From NCBI GenBank assembly GCA_045589595.1, contig JAZNPK010000011.1, positions 341-64,340 on the forward strand: DNA of 64,000 nucleotides, written 5' to 3'. Below, one piece after another: positions 1 to 14,531 of this stretch. Source of the stretch: Victivallales bacterium. GTDB taxonomy: Bacteria; Verrucomicrobiota; Lentisphaeria; Victivallales; UBA1829. Position numbers and translations under genes: made by a program. The notes under the pieces were generated by a model, which had not been told where the DNA came from, searched no databases, and saw nothing but the letters and a program-made list of their open reading frames with translations. Each line of letters opens with the position of its first letter. Position 1 is the stretch's first letter.

Positions 1-86
1 GCAGCCGCCAGAAGAATAAAATCACATTTTCCCCTTGTAGTAATAATTATTTTTGAATAAAAGAATAAAATAACTGCTTATAAAAC

Positions 87-114
87 TTGATTTATTCAAA
101 ATAAATGATATTTT
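87..114 (+). promoter_or_regulatory. Candidate sigma-70-type promoter of hipBA with an overlapping inverted repeat
   Basis: TTGATT (87-92), 16 nt, TATTTT (109-114), 25 nt upstream of ATG 139. A perfect 10-bp inverted repeat, TTTGAATAAA (52-61) / TTTATTCAAA (91-100), overlaps the -35 and looks operator-like. The AT-rich context lowers its significance. Confidence 0.35.
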
Positions 115-138
115 AATAGAAGTTACAAGGAGAACACT

Positions 139-459
139 ATGCCAAAGAAAACTGTAATTTTACTGCCTCAAATCGAAAATATCCTGTCAGAACTTGGTTC
201 CAATATCCGGCTTGCCCGGTTGCGGCGCAATATTACAGCCAAACTGGAAGCAGAACGGGCGGGCATCAGTATTGCAACGCTCGGAAAAATAGAATCCGGC
301 TCACCTGCAGTTTCAATTGGAAATTATATGCAGGTTTTGATGACCTTGGGCTTGGAAAAGGATATATTAAAAGTCGCTCAGGATGATGAATTGGGACGCA
401 AAATTCAAGATGCCGGACTTTCTGTTCGCCGCAGAGCTTCCAAACGAGGTGCAAAATGA
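139..459 (+). CDS. hipB: XRE-family helix-turn-helix regulator, HipB-like antitoxin
   Basis: 106 aa with an HTH core (ITAKLEAERAGISIATLGKIESG). SD AAGGAG lies upstream. The stop overlaps the hipA start (ATGA at 456-459). Confidence 0.75.
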   Translation: MPKKTVILLPQIENILSELGSNIRLARLRRNITAKLEAERAGISIATLGKIESGSPAVSIGNYMQVLMTLGLEKDILKVAQDDELGRKIQDAGLSVRRRASKRGAK

Positions 460-1697
460 GTGATGCTAAAAATATTTATGTCTATTTTGACCACAATACA
501 ACAACACCGGAGTTGCTCGGAGTACTTTCTGTTCAAATTGTCAGAGGCAAAGAATTTTTCTCATTTGAATTTAATCATGACTGGTTGAAGAAGTATCCCA
601 CACAAATTCTTGATCCTGATTTACAACTTTATACAGGCCCGCAATTTACATCAAAAAACAATTTTGGGATTTTTACAGATTCAGCCCCTGACCGCTGGGG
701 GCGCAGACTTATGCTCCGCAGAGAAAAAATCCGGGCAGCAAAGGAAGAACGCCGTCAAAAAATCTTGCAGGAATCGGATTTTTTGCTTGGGGTCTATGAT
801 GAAACCAGAATGGGGGCTTTGCGGTTCAAAATTGATCCGCAGGGTAAATTTATGAATGATGACAACAATATGGCCGCTCCTCCGTGGGCACGGCTCCGGG
901 AATTGGAAGAAGCCTGTCGCCGTCTTGATGATGACAAATTTCAAGATGAACACGAAAAGTGGCTTGCGATGCTTATTGCTCCCGGTTCATCTCTTGGAGG
1001 GGCAAGACCCAAAGCAACTATTACAGCCCCCGATAACTCTTTATGGATAGCAAAGTTTCCAAGTCACAATGACAATTCAAATATCTCTTCCTGGGAATAT
1101 ATTACAATGCAAATGGCAAGGGAATGCGGGATAAATGTTCCAGAGTGCAAATTGGAAAAGTTTTCAAAATTCGGTTCGACATTTCTGGTGAAACGCTTTG
1201 ACAGACTTAATGGTAAACGCATCCATTTTGCTTCGGCAATGACTTTATTAGGCAAGTCTGATGGAGCTAATGCCCAAGATGGCAGCAGTTATCTTGAAAT
1301 TGCAGAGTTTATTATGCGGTACGGTGCGGCTCCGGAACAGGATCTGCAAGAACTTTGGAAACGGATTGTATTTTCGATTGCAGTATCCAATACCGATGAT
1401 CATTTGCGAAATCATGGATTTTTGCTTTCAGAATCAGGTTGGAGATTATCTCCTGCTTATGATATAAACCCCAATCCGTCCGGATATGGACTGTCATTGA
1501 ATATTACAGAATATGACAATTCTCTGGATTTCGCTGTAGCTTTGGAAGTGGCTCCATTTTTCCGGCTGAAACAACAGGAAGCCGAAAAATGTTTGAAAGA
1601 AATAATCGATGTAACAGAGAACTGGCGAAACTATGCTTCAGCCAAAGGGATTTCCCGTTCCGAGCAAGAGGAAATGCAAAAAGCATTTCGTTGCTGA
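456..1697 (+). CDS. hipA: HipA-family serine/threonine kinase toxin
   Basis: 413 aa. Carries GSSLGGARPKA and the catalytic-loop motif NTDDHLRNHGF typical of HipA kinases. Translationally coupled to the upstream HTH gene. Confidence 0.9.
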   Translation: MSDAKNIYVYFDHNTTTPELLGVLSVQIVRGKEFFSFEFNHDWLKKYPTQILDPDLQLYTGPQFTSKNNFGIFTDSAPDRWGRRLMLRREKIRAAKEERRQKILQESDFLLGVYDETRMGALRFKIDPQGKFMNDDNNMAAPPWARLRELEEACRRLDDDKFQDEHEKWLAMLIAPGSSLGGARPKATITAPDNSLWIAKFPSHNDNSNISSWEYITMQMARECGINVPECKLEKFSKFGSTFLVKRFDRLNGKRIHFASAMTLLGKSDGANAQDGSSYLEIAEFIMRYGAAPEQDLQELWKRIVFSIAVSNTDDHLRNHGFLLSESGWRLSPAYDINPNPSGYGLSLNITEYDNSLDFAVALEVAPFFRLKQQEAEKCLKEIIDVTENWRNYASAKGISRSEQEEMQKAFRC

Positions 1698-1726
1698 TAA
1701 GTATTTGTTATTAAATGAGTCGTATT

Positions 1727-2497
1727 TTACCTCGGAAATCTTATTTTTCCATAAGCTTCTATCTTAACAAAAACTTCTAAAATATCTTCTTTTTCATCTG
1801 GTAGTTTGGAAAAGAAATCCAGATCGGTTTGTTTTTCCACTTCGTCAACGCTAACGGCGAACACCTGCAATGGTTGATCGGAGGGACGGTGGGGAATGAT
1901 AAAGCCGATCATTTTCTGCGGCGGAGTCAGGTCATAAATGACTTTGTAAAACGCTTTGGGAATGGTGATTTTTCCCGATGGCAGATATTTTGCTTCAGAC
2001 GCAGGCGGAAATATTGCTCCGGTAACGACATAAATTTCCTTCTCTTTCAAAGCGATTGCTCTCACTAACTCTTCCAGTCTTTTCCAAACTCCCCGGTTGA
2101 ATCCAGGAAGCTGCGGCGACATATTACTCATCAAAAAACTGTCCAGCATTGTCTGTTTGGAAAACGCCATATCTGCTGCCGGAGCAAGATGACCCCGGTC
2201 AAATCCGCTGCGGGTATAGTCTTTGGGGTAAGCTGAACGGGGAATCAAAGGATCATGCTTGAAACGGTTTGACCGTTTATATGGTTCAGCCTGTAATTCT
2301 GCGGCGGTAAGTTTGTAAATCACCCATAACGGCTGCCGGTGTTTATTGGAAAATCCGACCGCAAATCCCCGTCTGTCAATAACAACATCCGCTTTACCGG
2401 GATTTCCCAACAGCAGATTATCAAATTCAGATTTTTCAGCAGCACCGCAAAGAAATGCGATACAACTCAACAGAAAGAGGAACAGTTTGATCTTCAC
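1727..2497 (-). CDS. Secreted DNA/RNA non-specific endonuclease (NucA/EndoG beta-beta-alpha-Me family)
   Basis: Active-site motifs FDRGHLAP and SNMSPQ. I place the start at GTG 2497, with SD GAAAGGA 6 nt upstream followed by a signal-peptide-like KIKLFLFLLSCIAFLCGAA. The track ORF extends to 2557 only by reading through a terminator hairpin. Confidence 0.85.
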   Translation of the reverse strand: MKIKLFLFLLSCIAFLCGAAEKSEFDNLLLGNPGKADVVIDRRGFAVGFSNKHRQPLWVIYKLTAAELQAEPYKRSNRFKHDPLIPRSAYPKDYTRSGFDRGHLAPAADMAFSKQTMLDSFLMSNMSPQLPGFNRGVWKRLEELVRAIALKEKEIYVVTGAIFPPASEAKYLPSGKITIPKAFYKVIYDLTPPQKMIGFIIPHRPSDQPLQVFAVSVDEVEKQTDLDFFSKLPDEKEDILEVFVKIEAYGKIRFPR

Positions 2498-2520
2498 GGC
2501 AGTCCTTTCTGCCGCTTCAG

Positions 2521-2551
2521 ATAAAAAAAGAGCGGCAAGCCCAACTTGCCG
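2521..2551 (-). terminator. Intrinsic terminator immediately upstream of the nuclease start (attenuator-like position)
   Basis: The minus-strand RNA reads CGGCAAG-UUGGG-CUUGCCG followed by CUCUUUUUUUAU. The U-run ends about 25 nt before GTG 2497. Confidence 0.65.
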
Positions 2552-2765
2552 TGACACGAGGTCTGGTACAACCCATCATCTAAGCAAGCGGGTTGCCGCA
2601 TTAGTACACAAAGATACAATGCGACACTCCCGAATGTTTGCCAGATGATTTTGCGAAAGTACCAGTTTCGTGTCAGGCGAAACACCGGTTAGCCGGTATA
2701 TTCAATTTTTGTTATTTACACAAGTCCTAAATTTTCCGAAAATACCTCCTGTGGAATTTTGTCAT

Positions 2766-2794
2766 AATATACTACTACATCGGGCAAAACGCAA
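2766..2794 (-). promoter_or_regulatory. Candidate promoter of a leader or sRNA of about 240 nt that precedes the nuclease gene
   Basis: Minus strand reads TTGCGT (2794-2789), 17 nt, TATATT (2771-2766). Confidence 0.4.
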
Positions 2795-2848
2795 CCGCAG
2801 AAAACAGATTTTCTTGATTTGCTGTTCAAAAAACGCACAATTTTAAGA

Positions 2849-4537
2849 TTAAACGCTCTTGATTTTCAGCTGTCCGAACTTGGCAAGAACAGCTTTTGTT
2901 CCTGTCTTGTAAGTTACAGTAATCTTTGTTTTTTCATTAATATAAATGTCAGAGTCCTCTTCGGTTCCTTTATTCCGCAGTTCAATTTCCCAGGACGGCA
3001 TCCACGGACGGTTTGAAATCCACATCCGGGGAACTGTAACATCTCCATATTTTGTATGAAACTCTACCCGATCCCGGAATATAGTTGCTGTAATATCCGC
3101 TTCAACCAGTAAGGATTCATACAGACCATTGGAAAGATTTTTTGATGCAAGATCATTAAAAAGTTGCGAAAGGATACTGTTTCCCAACTCTTTCATTGAT
3201 TCTTCAGAAACTTCTGTCATTTTGAGAGTCAGAATTTTCTTGGAAATCTCTTCTTTCTTTAGTTTATGGTCAATAAGCATATTTCGGATCTGTTCTTCTG
3301 TTACAATACCTTCGGTAAACATATTAAACAGTTTCCGTTCTTTACTGTTGAGATTTTCCAGCTCGACTTCATATTTGGCAAGTTCCTGTTTCCCCTTGAG
3401 CATTTCTGCGGCTCTGTGGTAACGCTCAATCAATGCGATAGAAAGCAGCGGATATATTGCATCATATAATGTTGGATTTCCTCTTGCACCGGTTTCAAAG
3501 CGGATACGGCTGTTGCTGCACGACGCATGACTGCGGGAAAGATTCTTTTTGTTGCAGCCATAATAAACTTTACCGGAATCCAGTTTGCAGATAAGTTTAC
3601 TGCCGCACTCTCCGCAAAAGAGTCTGCCGGAAACCGGAAGCCAGTGTTTTTTATCTCTCCGGTAATGTTCCCTGCGTTTTACGCTGATGATCTCCTGTAC
3701 CTTTTGCCATTGGTCAAACGAAACAATTTCCTGCCCGGAGATTTGGATGTTTTTGATCAGTTCTCCGTCTGTATTATACTGATATCCAGCATAAAGCGGT
3801 TGTTTTGCGATGCTGTATATACTGCTTTCATAGAAGAACATTTCTGAACCGAAACGCTCGTTGCAGTCCTTTATTATAGATATATAGGAACGATGTTCAC
3901 AAATACTGTCGTAAATAAATCTGATAATTTCCACACATTCCGGACGGACTTCCAACTGATCATTGCCCAAATACCGGATACCAAAAATATGCGAGCCGCA
4001 ACAAAGTTTCCCACTGTCCCGTTTGATGCGGAAAGCATTGATACTGTTTTGCCGTTTCTTTTGAAGATCATCATAGAGGATTTGATTTTTGATGGAAGTG
4101 ATAAGCTGCTGATCGAATTTGGAAAGATCAATGCTGCCGCCTTGTACTTGCAAAACTTTAACATTATGCTCCCGGAGCAGATGATTGATGTGTCCTTCAA
4201 GGAAACTTCCATTGATCGGACGATAAAGACGGGTGAGTTCATTGACAAGGATAACATCAATTTCATCCAGGTGCAGTAAAGCTTCGCCCAAACCGGTTCT
4301 GAAAACTTTTTTTGTAGATTGATTGGCAATCCAATCCTTATAGGCAGAATCGACTCTCGCGATTTCTTCCGCACCGATAGGATAAGTTTCCCCGCTGGTG
4401 TTGAGATCCCGAAAAATTCCGATGACATCCAATTTTTCTTTTTCTGCAAGGGTCTGGCAGTTTGCAATCTGAGCTTCTACTGATTCAGACAGATCATCTT
4501 TACCACTGCTTTGACGGGCATAAATCAGAGCTTTCAT
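2849..4537 (-). CDS. Large serine recombinase (resolvase catalytic domain, recombinase domain, zinc ribbon, coiled coil)
   Basis: 562 aa. N-terminus is MKALIYARQSS (serine nucleophile motif). Cys4 ribbon CGECGSKLIC...YYGC...HASC. SD GGAGG lies upstream of ATG 4537. Confidence 0.9.
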   Translation of the reverse strand: MKALIYARQSSGKDDLSESVEAQIANCQTLAEKEKLDVIGIFRDLNTSGETYPIGAEEIARVDSAYKDWIANQSTKKVFRTGLGEALLHLDEIDVILVNELTRLYRPINGSFLEGHINHLLREHNVKVLQVQGGSIDLSKFDQQLITSIKNQILYDDLQKKRQNSINAFRIKRDSGKLCCGSHIFGIRYLGNDQLEVRPECVEIIRFIYDSICEHRSYISIIKDCNERFGSEMFFYESSIYSIAKQPLYAGYQYNTDGELIKNIQISGQEIVSFDQWQKVQEIISVKRREHYRRDKKHWLPVSGRLFCGECGSKLICKLDSGKVYYGCNKKNLSRSHASCSNSRIRFETGARGNPTLYDAIYPLLSIALIERYHRAAEMLKGKQELAKYEVELENLNSKERKLFNMFTEGIVTEEQIRNMLIDHKLKKEEISKKILTLKMTEVSEESMKELGNSILSQLFNDLASKNLSNGLYESLLVEADITATIFRDRVEFHTKYGDVTVPRMWISNRPWMPSWEIELRNKGTEEDSDIYINEKTKITVTYKTGTKAVLAKFGQLKIKSV

Positions 4538-4573
4538 AAATTTTCCTCCAAATTTAGTTTTTCATTTCACCAT

Positions 4574-4602
4574 AATATAGCACCAAAACCCTAATTTAAC
4601 AA
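4574..4602 (-). promoter_or_regulatory. Candidate promoter of the island's serine recombinase
   Basis: Minus strand reads TTGTTA, 17 nt (ending in the TGc extended -10), TATATT. The predicted start site is about 30 nt upstream of ATG 4537. The promoter lies entirely on the AT-rich side of the junction. Confidence 0.45.
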
Positions 4603-4664
4603 GTTTCATTCGTGAGCATCTCTACCAATGTAAAACAACAGTTTTTCAGTTTTTTCTTCATCAT
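4596..4664 (-). pseudogene. Truncated 5' stub of a prepilin-type (N-terminal cleavage/methylation) gene
   Basis: Minus strand has SD GAAAGGAG, then ATGATG..., encoding MMKKKLKNCCFTLVEMLTNETC*. The leader and FTLVEMLT match the intact gene at 6620 (FTLIEMLT; 18/24 nt over those codons). The hydrophobic helix that should follow is replaced by NETC-stop and AT-rich DNA. Confidence 0.6.
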
Positions 4665-4746
4665 CTGTAAAATTCTCCTTTCACTGCAGATATAGCACAT
4701 ACGACAGTTTCTGCTGTGTAACCGGAGTATTGCAGACAGGTGAAAA

Positions 4747-6468
4747 ATGGTGTATGATACCGCATCCGTCAGGACAACAGAACCCAACAAGTCAGGAGGT
4801 ATTATTGTGAGTGAGAGATGTTTTGTGTATTGCCGTCAATCCAGCGGTTCGGAAGGAGCATCGGAAAGTCTCAGCATCAATCAACAGCTGGAAAATTGTT
4901 TGAATTGCGCAAAATCTTACGGACTGGATATTACAGGCGTATTTACCGATGCCAATGTCAGTGGTAAAACATACCCTGCGGGCTATGAACAGATCGCTGC
5001 GGCTGATCGCGGATTTCAGCAATGGTATGCCGGACAAAGCGGAAGAAAACAGTTCCGGTCCGGTCTGGGTGAACTTCTGAAGCGTCTTCCGGAAGTGCAG
5101 GTGATCGTTGTGGATGAAATCACCCGTCTGTATCGGGCTGCCGCGGGATCATTTCTGGAACAGATTCTGTATTTTGCATTGACAGAAAAACGGATCCGTA
5201 TCCTGCAAGTCAAAGGCGGCTGGCTGGATCTTTCCAGTTTTGATCAGAGTCTGATCCAGCTTCTCCGGACACGGATCAATGACGAGCAGATCAATCATCA
5301 GCGGAAAAAAAGTATGGAAAGCCGTAAACGGCTGCGTGACGACGGATATGTTTGTAATGCAAATTTTTATGCCGGGATTTATGACGGACACAAGCATTTT
5401 CATTTTGATCCGGAAAAAGGAGAATGTGTCCGGCAGATATTTCAGGCGGTGGCATCCGGCATGTCTCTCGGTCAACTGTGCCGGGAACTCAATCGCAAAA
5501 GCCGATCTGTTATTTATCCGTCCACGATCCGCAGAATACTCACCAACCGGATCTACACCGGATATATGACAGATTCAAACGGATTGCTGATCCCCTGCAG
5601 AAATCTTGCAGAACCGCTGATCTCCGTAGAACTTTTTGAAGAGGTCCGCCAACGGTTGGAAGATCAACGGGAAAGAAATATCAAATCCCGCACGGAAACA
5701 TGCCGGAAATATTTTCTGCCCCTCTCCGGTTACCTGAAATGCGGGATCTGCGGCGCATCTTTGCAATGTGAGTTCGATCGGGGTAAAATTTTTTATCAGT
5801 GCCGCAACAGTGTATTGGGGCGCAATAAACGATGCGCAGCTGTGCGGATCCTTGATTCTTATGCGGACGGACGGAAAATCAATGGCTTGCGTCATACACT
5901 GGAACCATTTTTCCTGTTCGCATACCGGAAGCGTGAGGCACAACTCCGGGCATTGATCTGCAATGAAGAAAACAGAAGACAACTGGAACAGCAAAACAGA
6001 TGTCTGCAGGAACAGCTGACTGCCGCATTTGATGCCTGTTGCGCAGACCTTGTGGATAAAACAGATCTTCTTGCACTTACTTCACGCCAGATCTCACAGA
6101 TCAATATGTTGCGGCTGCAGTTGTATCAACTGACGGAATACGATCGAGTGGAAACGGAGACTGCTCTGGCAGAACTGGAACGGAAAAAGAAAAGATTCCT
6201 GACAGATCACAAAATCGATCATATCGAATACAGACAACTGATCTCAAAATGTATTGATACCGTGTATGTTTTTCCGGAATATATAAAAATCGTTTCCGCC
6301 CCGCCGGAACAAATGACTGTTTCACTGCCGCGAATTCTGTGTCCGCGACAGCAACGGCTCCTGCCGGACTGGAAAATCAGACATTTGAAAAACGGTACTG
6401 CAAAAATTTTTTACGATATCCCCGGCTCCACACCCCGAACCGTTATTTTTACAATAAAAAAACAGTGA
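4747..6468 (+). CDS. Large serine recombinase, paralogous to 2849-4537
   Basis: 573 aa. Carries CFVYCRQSS (serine motif), ITRLYR, a recombinase domain and the zinc ribbon CGICGASLQC...YQC...RC. SD AGGTGA lies before ATG 4747. An alternative in-frame GTG at 4807 is possible. Confidence 0.88.
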   Translation: MVYDTASVRTTEPNKSGGIIVSERCFVYCRQSSGSEGASESLSINQQLENCLNCAKSYGLDITGVFTDANVSGKTYPAGYEQIAAADRGFQQWYAGQSGRKQFRSGLGELLKRLPEVQVIVVDEITRLYRAAAGSFLEQILYFALTEKRIRILQVKGGWLDLSSFDQSLIQLLRTRINDEQINHQRKKSMESRKRLRDDGYVCNANFYAGIYDGHKHFHFDPEKGECVRQIFQAVASGMSLGQLCRELNRKSRSVIYPSTIRRILTNRIYTGYMTDSNGLLIPCRNLAEPLISVELFEEVRQRLEDQRERNIKSRTETCRKYFLPLSGYLKCGICGASLQCEFDRGKIFYQCRNSVLGRNKRCAAVRILDSYADGRKINGLRHTLEPFFLFAYRKREAQLRALICNEENRRQLEQQNRCLQEQLTAAFDACCADLVDKTDLLALTSRQISQINMLRLQLYQLTEYDRVETETALAELERKKKRFLTDHKIDHIEYRQLISKCIDTVYVFPEYIKIVSAPPEQMTVSLPRILCPRQQRLLPDWKIRHLKNGTAKIFYDIPGSTPRTVIFTIKKQ

Positions 6469-6484: not shown

Positions 6485-6513
6485 TTGAAATGTCAGAAAA
6501 TGTATGCTATCGT
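6485..6513 (+). promoter_or_regulatory. Candidate promoter of the H-X9-DG prepilin-type gene
   Basis: TTGAAA (6485-6490), 17 nt (ending TGc), TATCGT (6508-6513). This would give a 5' UTR of about 100 nt. Confidence 0.35.
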
Positions 6514-6619
6514 AAAGTGATGATAATTGACTCGTCAACCGGCTAACCAAGCCCGCAGACGCACATAGAGCCGGAATGGTCGTATGTGCATTGGCGGGGT
6601 CATGTGAGGAGATTGGCTT

Positions 6620-7669
6620 ATGAAAAAATTGCAAAACAGATTTTTGGCGAAAGATTTTACACTGATCGAAATGCTGACCGTGGTAGCGATCATTCTGATC
6701 CTTGTATCGCTGATGTTTCCGGCGATGAACAAACTCAAATCGCAGGCGGGGCGTCTCAACTGTCTGAACCGCGTGAAAGATATCGCACAGATGAATCTGC
6801 GGTTCGCAGGACGGAACAACGGCGAAGTGTGTCTGACTGTCAACGCTCCCCTGAACGATGCCAAGGACCGTTCCGATGCCGGCGGTCCTCCGGGCGTGTT
6901 GATCCCCACCGCTACTTATTTCCGCTGGATGTCACGTATGGCAGAGGACGAAGCCGGATACGCGGTGCCGCACATGTCCGCAGAATGGTGGAAATTCCTC
7001 TGTGATAATGTGCTTCCCGCCTGGAACCGCGGCGAGAACGGCTGGTTAAATACCGCACAGAAATACTGGCAGATCGAAAAAGGCGGCGAATCCCGCGCCC
7101 GTATGTGGCCGATCGATTACTATCTGGTGTACTCGCAGGGTAATTTCGGGACGAATGAAAACGGCAGAAAAAGCGGTCGTACCTACTCCTGCTGGGCGAA
7201 AGACCTGATTACCGGCGAAGAGTATGTTGCCACCAAAATCACATCACCGATGCTTCTTGCCAATGTGGCACGCCCGGGTTTGAGAACGTATGTGACCGAA
7301 CACGGCGAAGACGTCGCTGACGACAACGCATTCCATTATATCAAATTCAAAAGATATGATCAGCAGATCGATGGCACTTATGCCAAAGGTTACGGCTATA
7401 TCCCGGGCTACGGCGCCGCAGGAATCGGCAAAGAAAGTATTGAAGAAGTCGGTTACAGCGGCTATGTGCAGAGCCATAAACGCTTCCCGAAAATAAAAAT
7501 CGATGTGGAAGAAGGACGTCACGAAGGCTATACCCTCCACGGATTCTTTGACGGCCATGCCGAAATGATCGATGTGGAAAGAGTCGGATCCGGTCAGCTC
7601 CCCAAAGGCGGCGATAAGGCGAAAGACCTGAAAGGTATTTACGGCTACGTCACTTCCATCGACGAATAA
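6620..7669 (+). CDS. Prepilin-type N-terminal cleavage/methylation domain protein with a C-terminal H-X9-DG motif
   Basis: 349 aa. N-terminus is MKKLQNRFLAKD-FTLIEMLTVVAIILILVSL. The C-terminal RH-EGYTLHGFF-DGH gives H-X9-DG, the signature of the family I recall as TIGR04294. SD GAGGAGA lies upstream. Confidence 0.85.
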   Translation: MKKLQNRFLAKDFTLIEMLTVVAIILILVSLMFPAMNKLKSQAGRLNCLNRVKDIAQMNLRFAGRNNGEVCLTVNAPLNDAKDRSDAGGPPGVLIPTATYFRWMSRMAEDEAGYAVPHMSAEWWKFLCDNVLPAWNRGENGWLNTAQKYWQIEKGGESRARMWPIDYYLVYSQGNFGTNENGRKSGRTYSCWAKDLITGEEYVATKITSPMLLANVARPGLRTYVTEHGEDVADDNAFHYIKFKRYDQQIDGTYAKGYGYIPGYGAAGIGKESIEEVGYSGYVQSHKRFPKIKIDVEEGRHEGYTLHGFFDGHAEMIDVERVGSGQLPKGGDKAKDLKGIYGYVTSIDE

Positions 7670-7688
7670 CACACAGAGTGTGCCATAC

Positions 7689-7772
7689 CAGCGTTCCGCC
7701 GCTGGACCACGGCAAGGGCTCAGCCCTTGTCGTTGAGCAGAAAACTTGCACTCTGTGCCGCCTTTTCTGCCA
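7689..7772 (+). repeat. 84-nt three-hairpin repeat element, copy A (3' of the plus-strand gene)
   Basis: Three hairpins: CCAGCG-ttccgc-CGCTGG, CAAGGG-ctcag-CCCTTG and GCAGAAAA-N18-TTTTCTGC. Its reverse complement aligns with 7945-8027. Differences are concentrated in loops and linkers, and the stem arms I checked are conserved. Confidence 0.7.
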
Positions 7773-7944
7773 TAGTCAATGTTGCAGGCAACATTGACGG
7801 AATGGAATAAAATAGAATTCCAACGCACACTGTGTGTGCCGTATAGTGTCATCGCGTAACGCTCACGCTTACTTAATGGCACGATGAGGCAGAAAAAGCT
7901 TATCTGATTTTCACCGTTTTTGCAACGGGTTGCAAAAACTTACG

Positions 7945-8027
7945 GCAGAAAACACCGCACGAAGTGCAAGTTTTCTGCTCGCGTCAAGGGCCCTGCCCTT
8001 GCTGCGGTCCAGCGGCAGTCCGCTGGT
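7945..8027 (-). repeat. 83-nt three-hairpin repeat element, copy B (3' of the minus-strand gene)
   Basis: Inverted copy of 7689-7772. The same three stems are conserved, while loops differ (gactgc, caggg). It is oriented relative to its upstream gene in the same way as copy A. Confidence 0.7.
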
Positions 8028-8048
8028 CGCGCGAAGCGCGAAATACAC

Positions 8049-9030: not shown

Positions 9031-10080
9031 TTACGATTTCCGGTTGAGCATGAGGTCGATGGCTGCATTTGCGGCAGTATCGGGACGGAGTAATTGATGA
9101 CATTTCATATCGGGACATACCCGGTTGAAACAGCAGATACAATCCAGATCGGGCTGAATGGTGATACTGTTTTCGGAATATGGTCCGGTCAGCTCAGGAT
9201 CAGTGGGACCGAAGGGGGCGACCACCGGGACATTCAGAGCGGCGGCAATGTGCATCGGTCCGCTGTCGTTGCAGAGGAAAATACTGCATTTCCGGATCAG
9301 TTCCACCAGGGGGCCGAGGCGCGTTTTACCGCAGAGATCTGTGGCGGAAGCGGGATCATCCAGCAATTTCCGGATGGCTGCGGCAGCGGGATGTTCATCA
9401 TTTGTTCCCATCAGCAGAACATGCGCTTCGGGGAAGCGTTCCATCAGCCGTTTGACCACGCTTGCGAAATAGGTCGGCGGCCAGCATTTGGACTGCCATC
9501 TTGCACCCGGCGCGACGCCGATAAACATTTTTCCTTCCGGGATCCCCTCCTGCGCCAGAATATCTTCCGCTTCCAGCAGGAAACCGGGATCCACCGCCAA
9601 CGGTGCGGAGAAATGAACTTTATTCACATCCAGCCCCAGAAAACCTGCAATGATCTCGTTATTGCGTACCACGGCGTGCTGTCCGGGTGTGCGGACGATT
9701 TTTTTCGAGTAGAAGAACCGGGCGGCTTTTTCCCGCGGATCATCGGGTCCGGCATGGATCTTTGCTTTTGCAATGGACCCGAAATATGCGCTGCGCATCA
9801 ATCCCTGCAGATCGATCACCGCATCGTATTTTGTCTGACGCAATTCTTTGCGGAGTTTCAGATAGGACGGCAGAAACGAACCGAAGGAACCGAGCGCCTT
9901 GCGGTCAAAAATGATCGACCGTTCCACGCAGGGGAGATAACAGAGCAGTTGTGCGAACGCCGGATGGATCAGCCAGTCTGCCGTTCCTTTTGTTTTGCGA
10001 CAGAGTGCAGAGACCGCCGGAAATGCGTGAAGAACATCGCCCAGACTGCTCGGTTTGACGATCAGAAACCTGCTGCTCAT
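9031..10080 (-). CDS. Glycosyltransferase family 9 (ADP-heptose:LPS heptosyltransferase-like)
   Basis: 349 aa. The N-terminal FLIVKPSSLGDVLHAFPAVSAL and DLQGLMRSA are typical of WaaC/WaaF-type heptosyltransferases. Confidence 0.85.
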   Translation of the reverse strand: MSSRFLIVKPSSLGDVLHAFPAVSALCRKTKGTADWLIHPAFAQLLCYLPCVERSIIFDRKALGSFGSFLPSYLKLRKELRQTKYDAVIDLQGLMRSAYFGSIAKAKIHAGPDDPREKAARFFYSKKIVRTPGQHAVVRNNEIIAGFLGLDVNKVHFSAPLAVDPGFLLEAEDILAQEGIPEGKMFIGVAPGARWQSKCWPPTYFASVVKRLMERFPEAHVLLMGTNDEHPAAAAIRKLLDDPASATDLCGKTRLGPLVELIRKCSIFLCNDSGPMHIAAALNVPVVAPFGPTDPELTGPYSENSITIQPDLDCICCFNRVCPDMKCHQLLRPDTAANAAIDLMLNRKS

Positions 10081-12848: not shown

Positions 12849-14531
12849 ATGTTGGACCCGGAAAGTCAGTCCCTGAAAGATATCGTCCTCGCCAGCAATA
12901 TGGTGACCAAAGACCAGTTGATCGAGGTGGAGGAAGAATACGCCCGTACAGCCAAACCCCTGAAAGAACTTCTGATCAACTATGAGATCCTGACCGAAGA
13001 ACAGATCCTGGACCTGATCGCGTCCAGTCTGGGAATGGAGATCGTGGATCTCAGCCAGATGGAGATCGAAAAAAGCATCATCGACCTGATCCCGGCTGAT
13101 AATGCCCGTATGCTCGGCGCGATCCCGTTGGCATTTGACGGTATGACGATCACGGTCGCCGTCCGCAACCCCCTGAACTATCAGATCGCCGACGAACTGC
13201 GCTTCATGCTCGGCAAAGATGTGATGACCGTAGTGGCATCCGAAGCACAGATCGACAGCTGTCTGGAAAAATATTATCCCCTCGATCTCGGCTCCATGCA
13301 CGAAATGCTGGAAGAGATGAATCTGCAGGACGGCCTCAGCTCCCTGACGGATATTGATGCGGAAAGTGCTGCAAATGAAGCCCCGATCATCAAATTCGTG
13401 GACGCAGTTCTGTATCAGGCGGTGAAAGATAAAGCGTCTGACATCCATTTTGAGCCGTTTGAAAAAGAATTCAAGATCCGTTACCGTATCGACGGTGCGC
13501 TTTATGAAATGGCGCCTCCGCCCAAAAATCTGGCAGTTCCCGTGATCAGCCGTGTGAAGATCATGTCCAGTCTGAACATTTCCGAACGCCGGAAACCTCA
13601 GGACGGCCGTATCCAACTGAAAGTTGCCGGGAACCCCATCGACCTCCGTGTATCCACGCTGCCGACTCAGTTCGGGGAATCCGTGGTGCTTCGTGTGCTT
13701 GACCGCTCGGTTGTGAACCTGGACCTGGATATGCTCGGTATCAACGAACAGGTCCTTGCGAAGATCCGCGACATCATTTCCATGCCGAACGGTATCTTCA
13801 TCATTACCGGTCCTACCGGGTCCGGTAAGACCACCACCCTGTACTCCGCGCTCAAGGAGATCAACAAGGTGCAGGACAAGATCCTGACGGCGGAAGACCC
13901 TGTGGAATACGACTTGGAAGGGATCGTTCAGGTGCCGATCAACGATGCCATCGGGATGACCTTCGCCGCCGCGCTCCGTGCGTTCCTTCGTCAGGACCCG
14001 GACATTATCATGCTCGGTGAAACCCGAGACCTTGAATCTGCTGAAATGGCGGTTCAGGCATCGCTTACGGGACACCTTGTGTTCACGACCCTACACACCA
14101 ACGACGCCGCCGGTGCCATTACCCGACTGGTGGATATGGGCGTGGAACCCTTCCTTATCACATCGTCTCTGATCGGGATCCTCGGTCAGCGTCTTATCCG
14201 TAAGATCTGTACCGGCTGTAAAACGGCGTTTACGCCCACGGACGACGACCTTGCGGCGCTGGGGCTGAAACGGTCCGATATCGGCGACAATAAATTCTAT
14301 TACGGCAAGGGCTGCAGTCTCTGTCAGAATACCGGTTACAAAGGCCGGAAAGCCATTACGGAACTGCTTGCCATGAACTCCAAGATCAACGATCTGGTGC
14401 TTCAGAATGCACCGACCATCGTCATCCGCGATAAAGCCCGTGAACTCGGCATGGAAACCATGCGTGAAGACGGTATCCGCGCCATTCTCAATGGTGAAAC
14501 GACGATGGAAGAGATCCTGAAATATACATAA
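12849..14531 (+). CDS. GspE/PilB-family assembly ATPase (paralog 2)
   Basis: 560 aa with the same motif set (GPTGSGKTT, TGHLVFTTLHTND, CTGC...CSLC). SD GGAGAGAA lies upstream. Confidence 0.92.
   Translation: MLDPESQSLKDIVLASNMVTKDQLIEVEEEYARTAKPLKELLINYEILTEEQILDLIASSLGMEIVDLSQMEIEKSIIDLIPADNARMLGAIPLAFDGMTITVAVRNPLNYQIADELRFMLGKDVMTVVASEAQIDSCLEKYYPLDLGSMHEMLEEMNLQDGLSSLTDIDAESAANEAPIIKFVDAVLYQAVKDKASDIHFEPFEKEFKIRYRIDGALYEMAPPPKNLAVPVISRVKIMSSLNISERRKPQDGRIQLKVAGNPIDLRVSTLPTQFGESVVLRVLDRSVVNLDLDMLGINEQVLAKIRDIISMPNGIFIITGPTGSGKTTTLYSALKEINKVQDKILTAEDPVEYDLEGIVQVPINDAIGMTFAAALRAFLRQDPDIIMLGETRDLESAEMAVQASLTGHLVFTTLHTNDAAGAITRLVDMGVEPFLITSSLIGILGQRLIRKICTGCKTAFTPTDDDLAALGLKRSDIGDNKFYYGKGCSLCQNTGYKGRKAITELLAMNSKINDLVLQNAPTIVIRDKARELGMETMREDGIRAILNGETTMEEILKYT

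Follow-up and report, generated by a model that had tools for sequence, protein, structure and literature searches.

Severed start of a prepilin-like gene at the edge of a serine recombinase island in a Victivallales bacterium

The 64,000-nucleotide stretch of contig JAZNPK010000011.1 analyzed here (the window), from a Victivallales bacterium, carries on its minus strand a 22-codon open reading frame (ORF), the stub, which is the severed start of a prepilin-like gene (gene S) and not a chance ORF. Its last codons run into a genomic island bearing the gene of a large serine recombinase, recA, a label that designates the island recombinase throughout and is unrelated to the RecA protein. The explanation in which we place considerable confidence is that the stub constitutes the leader-side hybrid junction (attL/attR type) of a large island inserted by recA into gene S, in reversed orientation by way of an AC center, gene S being itself one arm of a switch governed by a second large serine recombinase, recB.

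The severed gene and its empty site

Read on the minus strand from 4664 to 4596, the locus gives GTGAAAGGAGAATTTTACAG and then ATG ATG AAG AAA AAA CTG AAA AAC TGT TGT TTT ACA TTG GTA GAG ATG CTC ACG AAT GAA ACT TGT TAA, which codes for MMKKKLKNCCFTLVEMLTNETC followed by a stop. Codons 1-18 are host-derived, save for the third base of codon 18, a G at position 4611 that belongs to the island and is a C in the empty site, while the final four codons and the stop come from the island end. The host remnant (4612-4694) is the start of a gene that is intact in conspecific contigs. These contigs (L097-L102, from six samples) were retrieved by exact-sequence look-up of the heptosyltransferase encoded at 9031-10080, whose protein cluster bears the NCBI label Lentisphaeria bacterium, and five of them, from five different samples, show the empty site (L098, L099, L100, L101, and L102). 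L098, L100, L101, and L102 share 99.0-99.2% identity with the window over the last 3.1-15 kilobases (kb) down to nucleotide (nt) 4612; L099 15261-15354 is identical to window 4705-4612 at 94/94 positions and forms the 5′ end of an intact gene of 363 amino acids (aa). Homology to the window ends at nt 4612 in 5/5 island-free contigs, and the breakpoint falls after the AC of the Thr18 codon. There the empty site reads ...GAGATGCTCAC/CGTGGTAGCGATCATCCTGATCC (the slash marks the breakpoint here and below) and continues as CGTGGTAGCGATCATC..., a sequence also written ...ATGCTCACCGTGGTAGCG, whereas the window reads ...GAGATGCTCAC/GAATGAAACTTG. The intact S protein (352-363 aa) runs from MMKKKLKNCCFTLVEMLTVVAIILILVSL to FFDGHAE, also given as MMKKKLKNCCFTLVEMLTVVAIILILVSLMFPAMNKL...RHDGYTLHSFFDGHAE, with the N-terminus FTLVEMLT/VVAIILIL; in L102 the gene body is broken by a run of N. 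The stub is known not to be a chance ORF because of the 94/94 match of L099 to the start of an intact gene and the same start in four more contigs, and the precise empty site in all five makes the island a presence/absence polymorphism.

A first-pass annotation, made from the letters of the window, had described the stub exactly as it is given above, and its count of 18/24 identical nt between the FTLxEMLT codons of the stub and those of the intact gene at 6620 (gene I) was reproduced by hand. Its observation that the DNA beyond the stub switches to AT-rich sequence holding a serine recombinase 74 nt away is likewise borne out: GC makes up about 40% of the sequence left of 4600 and about 53% of that right of 6600, and the 562-aa recombinase starts at 4537. 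It had named island-free relatives with the same 22-codon stub as a finding that would speak against an insertion; the five conspecific contigs carry the full gene instead. The N-terminus that it called prepilin-type does have F+1, E+5, and the hydrophobic helix in both S and I, but residue -1 is Cys (S) or Asp (I) instead of Gly, and the profile scores lie below their cut-offs (TIGR02532, 13.4 bits for S and 15.1 for I vs. 16.3; PF07963, 10.7 and 11.3 vs. 21.2). For these reasons S and I are referred to as prepilin-like and not as validated prepilins. A relative of the canonical targets (L113:8007-8756) passes the prepilin profile with 32.6 bits. Both S and I also carry RHDGYTLHSFFDGH, an H-X9-DG motif recognized by eye, and have no PF07596 match at E<=1. 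The multicopy family that the same annotation invoked exists in related genomes but not within the 64-kb window, where the stub and the gene at 6620 are the only two prepilin-like N-termini.

A recurrent island end and a reversed insertion

In six to seven other contexts the island stops at this same nucleotide, its end reading ...GTTTCATTC/GT. A scan of species-representative genomes with recA yielded five metagenome-assembled genomes (MAGs) of Victivallaceae/Lentisphaeria (L001-L005), whose recombinases are 98.9-99.8% identical to recA and whose DNA is 96-98% identical. Homology to the window ends at nt 4613 in 5/5 of them, and the flank encodes on the opposite strand a different gene body in each case, starting with VVIAIIAILA(A/G)MLLP(A/S)L, a prepilin-like hydrophobic helix. 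In three of these bodies the sequence reaches far enough to reveal an H-X9-DG-like C-terminus. The DUF1559 threshold is passed by one; with PF07596 the L005 body scores 23.9 bits (cut-off 23.3). The six target genes, S included, are pairwise less than 50% identical. More distant relatives have the same anatomy, namely L006 (68% aa identity, on a 5.7-Mb contig), L089-L092 (64%), and L093-L096 (65%), the last four having one identical protein beside four different flanks. Six relative junctions (L006, L089, and L093-L096) read recombinase-proximal (R) arm/GT/V(V)IAII, lie 65-76 nt upstream of the recombinase start, and are divergent from it; the flanking genes of L093 and L094, and also of L113, have precomputed PF07596 matches. 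Among 13 distinct junctions, the arm is joined to a gene body in 11, to a decayed helix-like remnant in one (L103/L104), and to a leader half in one, that of the window. Since 11 of the 12 other junctions abut the helix-coding start of different prepilin-like paralogs, the recA family, as far as these sequences tell, uses the conserved N-terminal segment as a multicopy attB.

The proposal of the first-pass annotation that a recombinase-bearing island had integrated into the N-terminal segment of a prepilin-type gene thus gains both an empty site and 12 further family junctions, 11 of them in prepilin-like bodies, and its expectation that such a segment would offer many landing sites agrees with the same island end being found at five different gene bodies in five MAGs and at six sites of the relatives. 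As for the target, which it had placed in the leader-coding segment, the conserved N-terminal coding DNA is indeed concerned, but the exact point is the first codon after FTLxE(L/M)L, at the helix start. Most contigs of the recA family are about 2 kb long, and some clusters at 90% identity have 600-750 members, which indicates that these elements are abundant and that they break assemblies.

The empty site, the window junction, and the island end in other contexts have just AC/GT in common, and this is the likely crossover. In an alignment of intact N-termini from the fetched loci, the crossover codon lies three positions before A-I-I. Canonical genes (ELL-V-VIAII) have a GTN codon there, and S and its paralog I (EML-T-VVAII) have ACC; the center dinucleotide is GT (or AT) in canonical intact paralogs and AC in S and I. 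The body half-site of S matches the canonical consensus at 13/18 specified positions (hand count). The orientation of the island in the window is opposite to that of every other copy seen, and the leader half reads in the same direction as recA. In serine integrases the polarity of insertion is set by the central dinucleotide (PMC3642061). Because the center of S is the reverse complement and polarity would be taken from the dinucleotide only, we infer that the AC instead of a GT center caused the reversed orientation. A TGATCG...CGATCA dyad was considered as a recognition signal and is not relied on, being dependent on codon choice and absent from some targets.

The proposed sequence of events is as follows. 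The recombinase would recognize the DNA coding for the conserved N-terminus FTLxE(L/M)L-(V/T)-V(I/V)AII and exchange strands at the first two bases of the codon after E(L/M)L. Conservation of this segment across paralogs would let the island, and its relatives with 64-68%-identical recombinases, land in many of them. With an ordinary Val (GTN) target, the recombinase gene would end up back-to-back with the gene body; with the Thr codon (ACC) of gene S, the 2-base-pair (bp) crossover would be reverse-complemented and the island inserted the other way round. The outcome would be a promoter, a Shine-Dalgarno (SD) sequence, and 18 codons reading into the island arm (NETC-stop) and then into recA. 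If a simple integration took place, a far junction of the form island end/AC/CGTGGTAGCG... is expected left of the window.

Several points weigh against this account. The orientation argument draws on one reversed case, and just one of the two junctions of an insertion, the recombinase-proximal one, is documented: the far island end and the displaced S body lie beyond the window, and none of the collections searched contained them. A one-ended rearrangement or a deletion of the S body could also have left such a picture. The flank in L103/L104, GT/GATTTGGGCGATATTGCC..., is ambiguous, and no circular form or attP was identified with confidence. The roles given to recA in insertion and to recB in inversion are putative. 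Finally, the window may stem from a metagenome assembly, although it would be strikingly fortuitous for a chimera to be joined precisely where the recombinase crosses over.

Three other explanations were weighed. We regard as improbable a canonical integration followed by an inversion or rearrangement, through recA, recB, or homologous recombination between paralogs, that secondarily produced the leader-recombinase junction. Any site-specific route of this kind would still need an AC crossover at Thr18, and would add steps without explaining more; the locus is admittedly prone to rearrangement, as seen in the inverting recB segment and in L097, where copies of a palindromic repeat bound an inverted block of gene I, recB, gene S, and an acetyltransferase gene, and the far junction is unseen. 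However, the 64-kb window holds no leaderless body and no head-to-head body junction, and the recB crossover maps to 11-bp repeats upstream of the SD and not to the stub breakpoint, for which reason a derivation of the stub by inversion between two leader-coding repeats flanking recB was also rejected. Still less credible is an assembly chimera, in which a repeated island contig was misjoined to the S locus and the insertion existed in no cell. It would fit the length typical of recombinase-family contigs, with assemblies breaking at the element, and the 5/5 conspecific contigs showing the site without the island, but the partners share only 2-3 nt (AC/ACG), far too few for a k-mer misjoin, and the join falls both on the recurrent island-end nucleotide and in the family register of the target, three codons before A-I-I. 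Least plausible of all is a functional small gene or regulatory leader making a 22-aa peptide, or a product of recB, in place of a recA-island scar: the SD, start codon, and upstream region are kept, and an inverted recB segment would supply a stronger promoter-like site reading into recA, yet the last four codons and stop result from reading on into the island arm, this arm, read from its other side, abuts gene bodies in other contexts, island-free relatives have the full gene, and the 22-aa peptide has no protein-family match.

Three loci of the family call for separate mention. In L103 (19271-19330) and L104 (16602-16660), the arm is followed by GT/GATTTGGGCGATATTGCCGTTATAA (VIWAILPL-stop, the decayed helix-like remnant), beyond which lies the 3′ end of a TrwC relaxase gene. 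This junction can be read either as the attP of a circular or plasmid form or as an insertion into a remnant on another element; the attP reading was not adopted, the outer arm resembling target (B′) half-sites and not the R arm. In L006 (9211-14327), an intact prepilin-like gene (13497-14327, minus strand) lies about 4.3 kb beyond the 68%-identical recombinase gene. It may join the leader of the original target to a body brought in by the element, which would make it a replacement cassette; GC and gene content gave no clear answer as to whether the gene is part of the L006 element or where that element has its far end. In L007 (9800-10000), a relative 55% identical to recA has no adjoining prepilin-like body and has a terminator-like hairpin upstream, which shows that family members this far apart differ in the targets they choose.

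The island and the putative recB switch in the window

The features of the window that bear on the insertion are collected in Table 1. The domains of recA are those of a large serine recombinase (PF00239, 42.3 bits, cut-off 23.3; PF07508, 29.6, cut-off 21.1; PF13408, 30.2, cut-off 25.3), its N-terminus holds the Y-x-R-x-S motif as read from the sequence, and its equal length and 99.8% identity to the L001 copy indicate an intact gene. A tblastn search of annotated phages and plasmids with recA returned no relative at E<=1e-20, phmmer found no match by sequence in the PDB, and the viral contigs scanned contained no match to the island arm. Exact-sequence look-ups of HipA, recA, and gene I gave no match.

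Table 1. Positions of the junction, island, and switch features in the window
Feature	Position	Strand	Description
Island part inside the window	1..4611		Last 4.6 kb of the island, which runs past the left window edge
Helix-turn-helix (HTH) antitoxin-like gene	139-459	+	Island cargo
HipA kinase toxin gene	456-1697	+	Island cargo
DNA/RNA non-specific endonuclease gene	1727..2557	-	Island cargo
recA	2849..4537	-	562-aa large serine recombinase, N-terminus MKALIYARQSS
R arm (recombinase-proximal)	4538..4611	-	GAATGAAACTTGTTAAATTAGGG...
Promoter-like site for recA	4602-4574		TTGTTA-17-TATATT, inside the R arm
Stub ORF	4596..4664	-	22 codons, MMKKKLKNCCFTLVEMLTNETC-stop; sequence reading and six-frame scan
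Putative crossover dinucleotide	4612..4613		AC on minus strand, GT on plus strand; first two bases of Thr18 (ACG/ACC)
Host remnant of gene S	4612..4694	-	5′ untranslated region with SD AAAGGAG, and coding nt 4664-4612
Invertible segment	4695..6589		1,895 bp; 11-bp perfect inverted repeats GCACATACGAC (4695-4705) and GTCGTATGTGC (6579-6589)
recB	4807..6468	+	Large serine recombinase of 553 aa; GTG start preceded by AGGAGG, or ATG 4747 according to some gene callers
Promoter-like site	6485..6513	+	TTGAAA-17-(TG)TATCGT, right end of the invertible segment
Gene I	6620..7669	+	Intact 349-aa paralog of the stub gene, FTLIEMLT/VVAIILILVSL..., C-terminal H-X9-DG-like FFDGH

The island extends beyond the window on the left. 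An exact-sequence look-up of the HTH protein brought up homologous islands that match the window from its first nt onward (L103, L104, and L106-L111 at 97.6-98.0% identity, L112 at 95.4%). Of these, L103/L104 run at least 9.8 kb further left, with no end reached, and carry there a PAPS-reductase-like gene, a Prok_Ub gene, and small genes of the backbone; in L093, the DNA downstream of the 65%-identical recombinase gene is colinear with this backbone. The speculation of the first-pass annotation that the left junction lies at 17/18, where the leader would fuse in frame to ILLAA, is contradicted by this leftward continuation, and the expected body, CGTGGTAGCGATC..., is absent from the window.

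Between the HipA and endonuclease genes (window ~1692-1794) lies a cargo hot spot, occupied in L103/L104 by an MmeI-type restriction-modification gene, an HNH protein gene, and others, in L106/L107/L110 by a 364-aa gene, and in L005 by a 1,290-nt insert. The HTH-HipA module (window 68-1692; L088 224-1848) is 94% identical at the nt level in an unrelated context with an IS3-type transposase and GmrSD genes; this HipBA module moves independently of the island, and L088 was rejected as an island relative on account of its context. A metagenome scan with the HTH antitoxin found HipBA modules only (~62-77% nt identity), none of them with a recombinase, and no far end of the island.

The first-pass annotation, right about the stub itself, overlooked what borders it on the side away from the island, where recB is the only gene inside an invertible segment. 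The recB product shares about 30% identity with recA, scores 53.3 bits with PF07508, and has a weak zinc-ribbon match of 21.7 bits. One 11-bp repeat is placed 30 nt upstream of the start codon of gene S, and the other equally far upstream of that of gene I. The segment 4695-6589 is inverted in L099 relative to the window, L098, and L100-L102; a comparison of L098 with L099 shows identical outer flanks around an inner stretch of 1,873 bp that is reverse-complemented, with 11 mismatches, and places the exchange inside the 11-bp repeats. The Logan contig L116, 1,895 nt long, has both of its ends exactly at these repeats, which is what a sample with the two orientations side by side should yield. 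The promoter-like site at 6485-6513 faces outward, toward gene I in the window orientation and toward S in L099, and the opposite segment end has a weak promoter match only. From this arrangement, recB is probably the invertase of the segment, and inversion would swap the upstream promoter regions of S and I, which suggests a Hin-like switch whose enzyme would be a large serine recombinase. In this genome one of its arms would be dead: after a flip, the stronger promoter-like site would read through the stub into recA. Gene I has the same AC central codon as S and is unoccupied by the island.

The nearest relatives of recB are 40-42% identical. In L113/L114 and L117 they are bordered upstream, at ~70 nt, by a divergent leaderless body (AVL/VVIAII...) and downstream by a paralog that has both promoter and leader; in L113 (5174-8756) and L117 (1-3015) the two bodies form inverted repeats of 300-633 nt, 84-89% identical. 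The loci of recB relatives include ~2.1-kb contigs covering the segment only, and the alternative orientation was not observed in them. The geometry of the leaderless body in L113/L114/L117 is the same as at the island junctions. It suggests, without proving it, that L113 and L117 may be inversion switches with one leader and two bodies, and that integrases and invertases may be linked in evolution. A 33%-identical relative of recB lies in a phage-like context without pilin genes.

Relation to known recombinases and genomic surroundings

Large serine integrases that insert inside coding sequences include those of Bxb1 (groEL1), A118 (comK), and SPbeta (spsM), and TnpX/TndX elements are a further case. 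On the one hand, recA resembles the large serine integrases of phages and integrative and conjugative elements in its resolvase, recombinase, and zinc-ribbon domains, in the location of its gene about 75 nt from the element end, in the splitting of an ORF at what is probably a 2-bp crossover, and in a polarity that the central dinucleotide would set. On the other hand, its target differs in being a segment common to a paralogous family, with many natural attB sites, instead of a single-copy gene, and it has a natural target variant (Thr ACC for Val GTN) that goes with reversed orientation. Durrant et al. (PMC10083194) define a multi-targeting large serine recombinase as one 90%-identity cluster found in over three clusters of target genes (50% identity). 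The recA cluster, at least 98.9% identical, occupies at least six target genes that are pairwise less than 50% identical, and in this operational sense recA is like the multi-targeting recombinases. The multi-targeting clade of that study has DUF4368 as a marker and often relaxed AT-rich motifs with a TT core; the paper raises the idea of sequences present at multiple sites, has no occurrence of the word "pilin", and mentions no DUF1559 targets (PMC10083194). In contrast, neither recA nor recB matches DUF4368 at E<=0.01, and the sites of recA are one protein-constrained segment of about 40 bp. A search of a literature library for DUF1559 together with "serine recombinase" found no paper.

The small serine invertases Hin, Gin, Cin, and Pin have about 190 aa, a C-terminal HTH, sites of about 26 bp, and an enhancer. 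The recB segment is like the Hin switch in having the recombinase gene inside an invertible segment of about 1-2 kb, short inverted repeats, and an outward promoter-like site that is re-aimed from one to the other of two surface-protein genes. However, recB has 553 aa with recombinase and zinc-ribbon-like domains, and it would be invertase-like in its working without being a member of the Hin family. Large serine recombinases are normally unidirectional, so two-way flipping by recB needs explaining. In the R64 shufflon, the tyrosine recombinase Rci swaps C-terminal segments of the PilV pilin among several cassettes. Site-specific inversion at the recB, L113, and L117 loci would likewise alter which pilin-type variant is made; unlike Rci, the enzyme is a large serine recombinase, the exchange lies at or before the N-terminal helix, and there are two partners only.

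A broader proposition, on which we are evenly divided, is that large serine recombinases of Lentisphaeria have specialized on the N-terminal segment of DUF1559/H-X9-DG genes, both as island integrases, for which any paralog could serve as attB and a single codon (Val GTN or Thr ACN) would fix polarity, and as resident invertases of the recB clade, chromosomal descendants or cousins that would flip a promoter region (in the window) or a cassette of promoter and leader (L113/L117) between two divergent paralogs. If true, it would amount to a large-serine-recombinase "shufflon" for hypervariable surface proteins, escaping the usual unidirectionality, in uncultured gut Lentisphaeria, whose surface biology is essentially unknown. 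Integration by way of a multigene-family attB with a polarity flip would be a variant of the integration known for large serine recombinases, and the recB switch is the less expected part of the locus. A natural serine integrase would have as its attB a segment constrained at the protein level and carried by many paralogous genes of a single genome. Its islands could spread across species, as the 96-98%-identical copies in five species-level MAGs would have it, always finding a site at the cost of one redundant family member. The Val-to-Thr codon that would flip the island offers a natural test of the polarity rule of the central dinucleotide, and about a dozen attB variants with one conserved core could be of use for the study or engineering of half-site recognition in a clade of large serine recombinases without a characterized relative. 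The recB switch and its relatives suggest that large serine recombinases may act as two-way invertases for phase or antigenic variation of pilin-like proteins.

Intact copies of S in conspecific strains (L098 15429-16508, L099 15302-16393, L100 15567-16625, L101 15408-16499, and L097 16577-17668) share 54-95% aa identity, with conserved flanking DNA at 99.2-99.5%; paralog I is 93-99.7% identical among strains. The variability of S suggests diversifying selection or recombination acting on a surface protein. About 3 kb from S and I, from window 10966 to about 17000, lies a type IV filament/type II secretion cluster with three T2SSE-family ATPases (type II secretion system/type IV pilus, T2SS/T4P) and a T2SSF platform protein, as annotated in conspecific contigs; it is likely the machinery for the prepilin-like proteins S and I. 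Downstream of gene I, nested inverted repeats (46-nt and 40-nt arms; window 7676-8047) form a palindromic element of about 370 nt, of which a second copy lies beyond the acetyltransferase gene (L099 17857-18030). It is between such palindromic copies that the four-gene block from I to the acetyltransferase gene is inverted in L097 (12055-21050), with about 3 kb of extra DNA.

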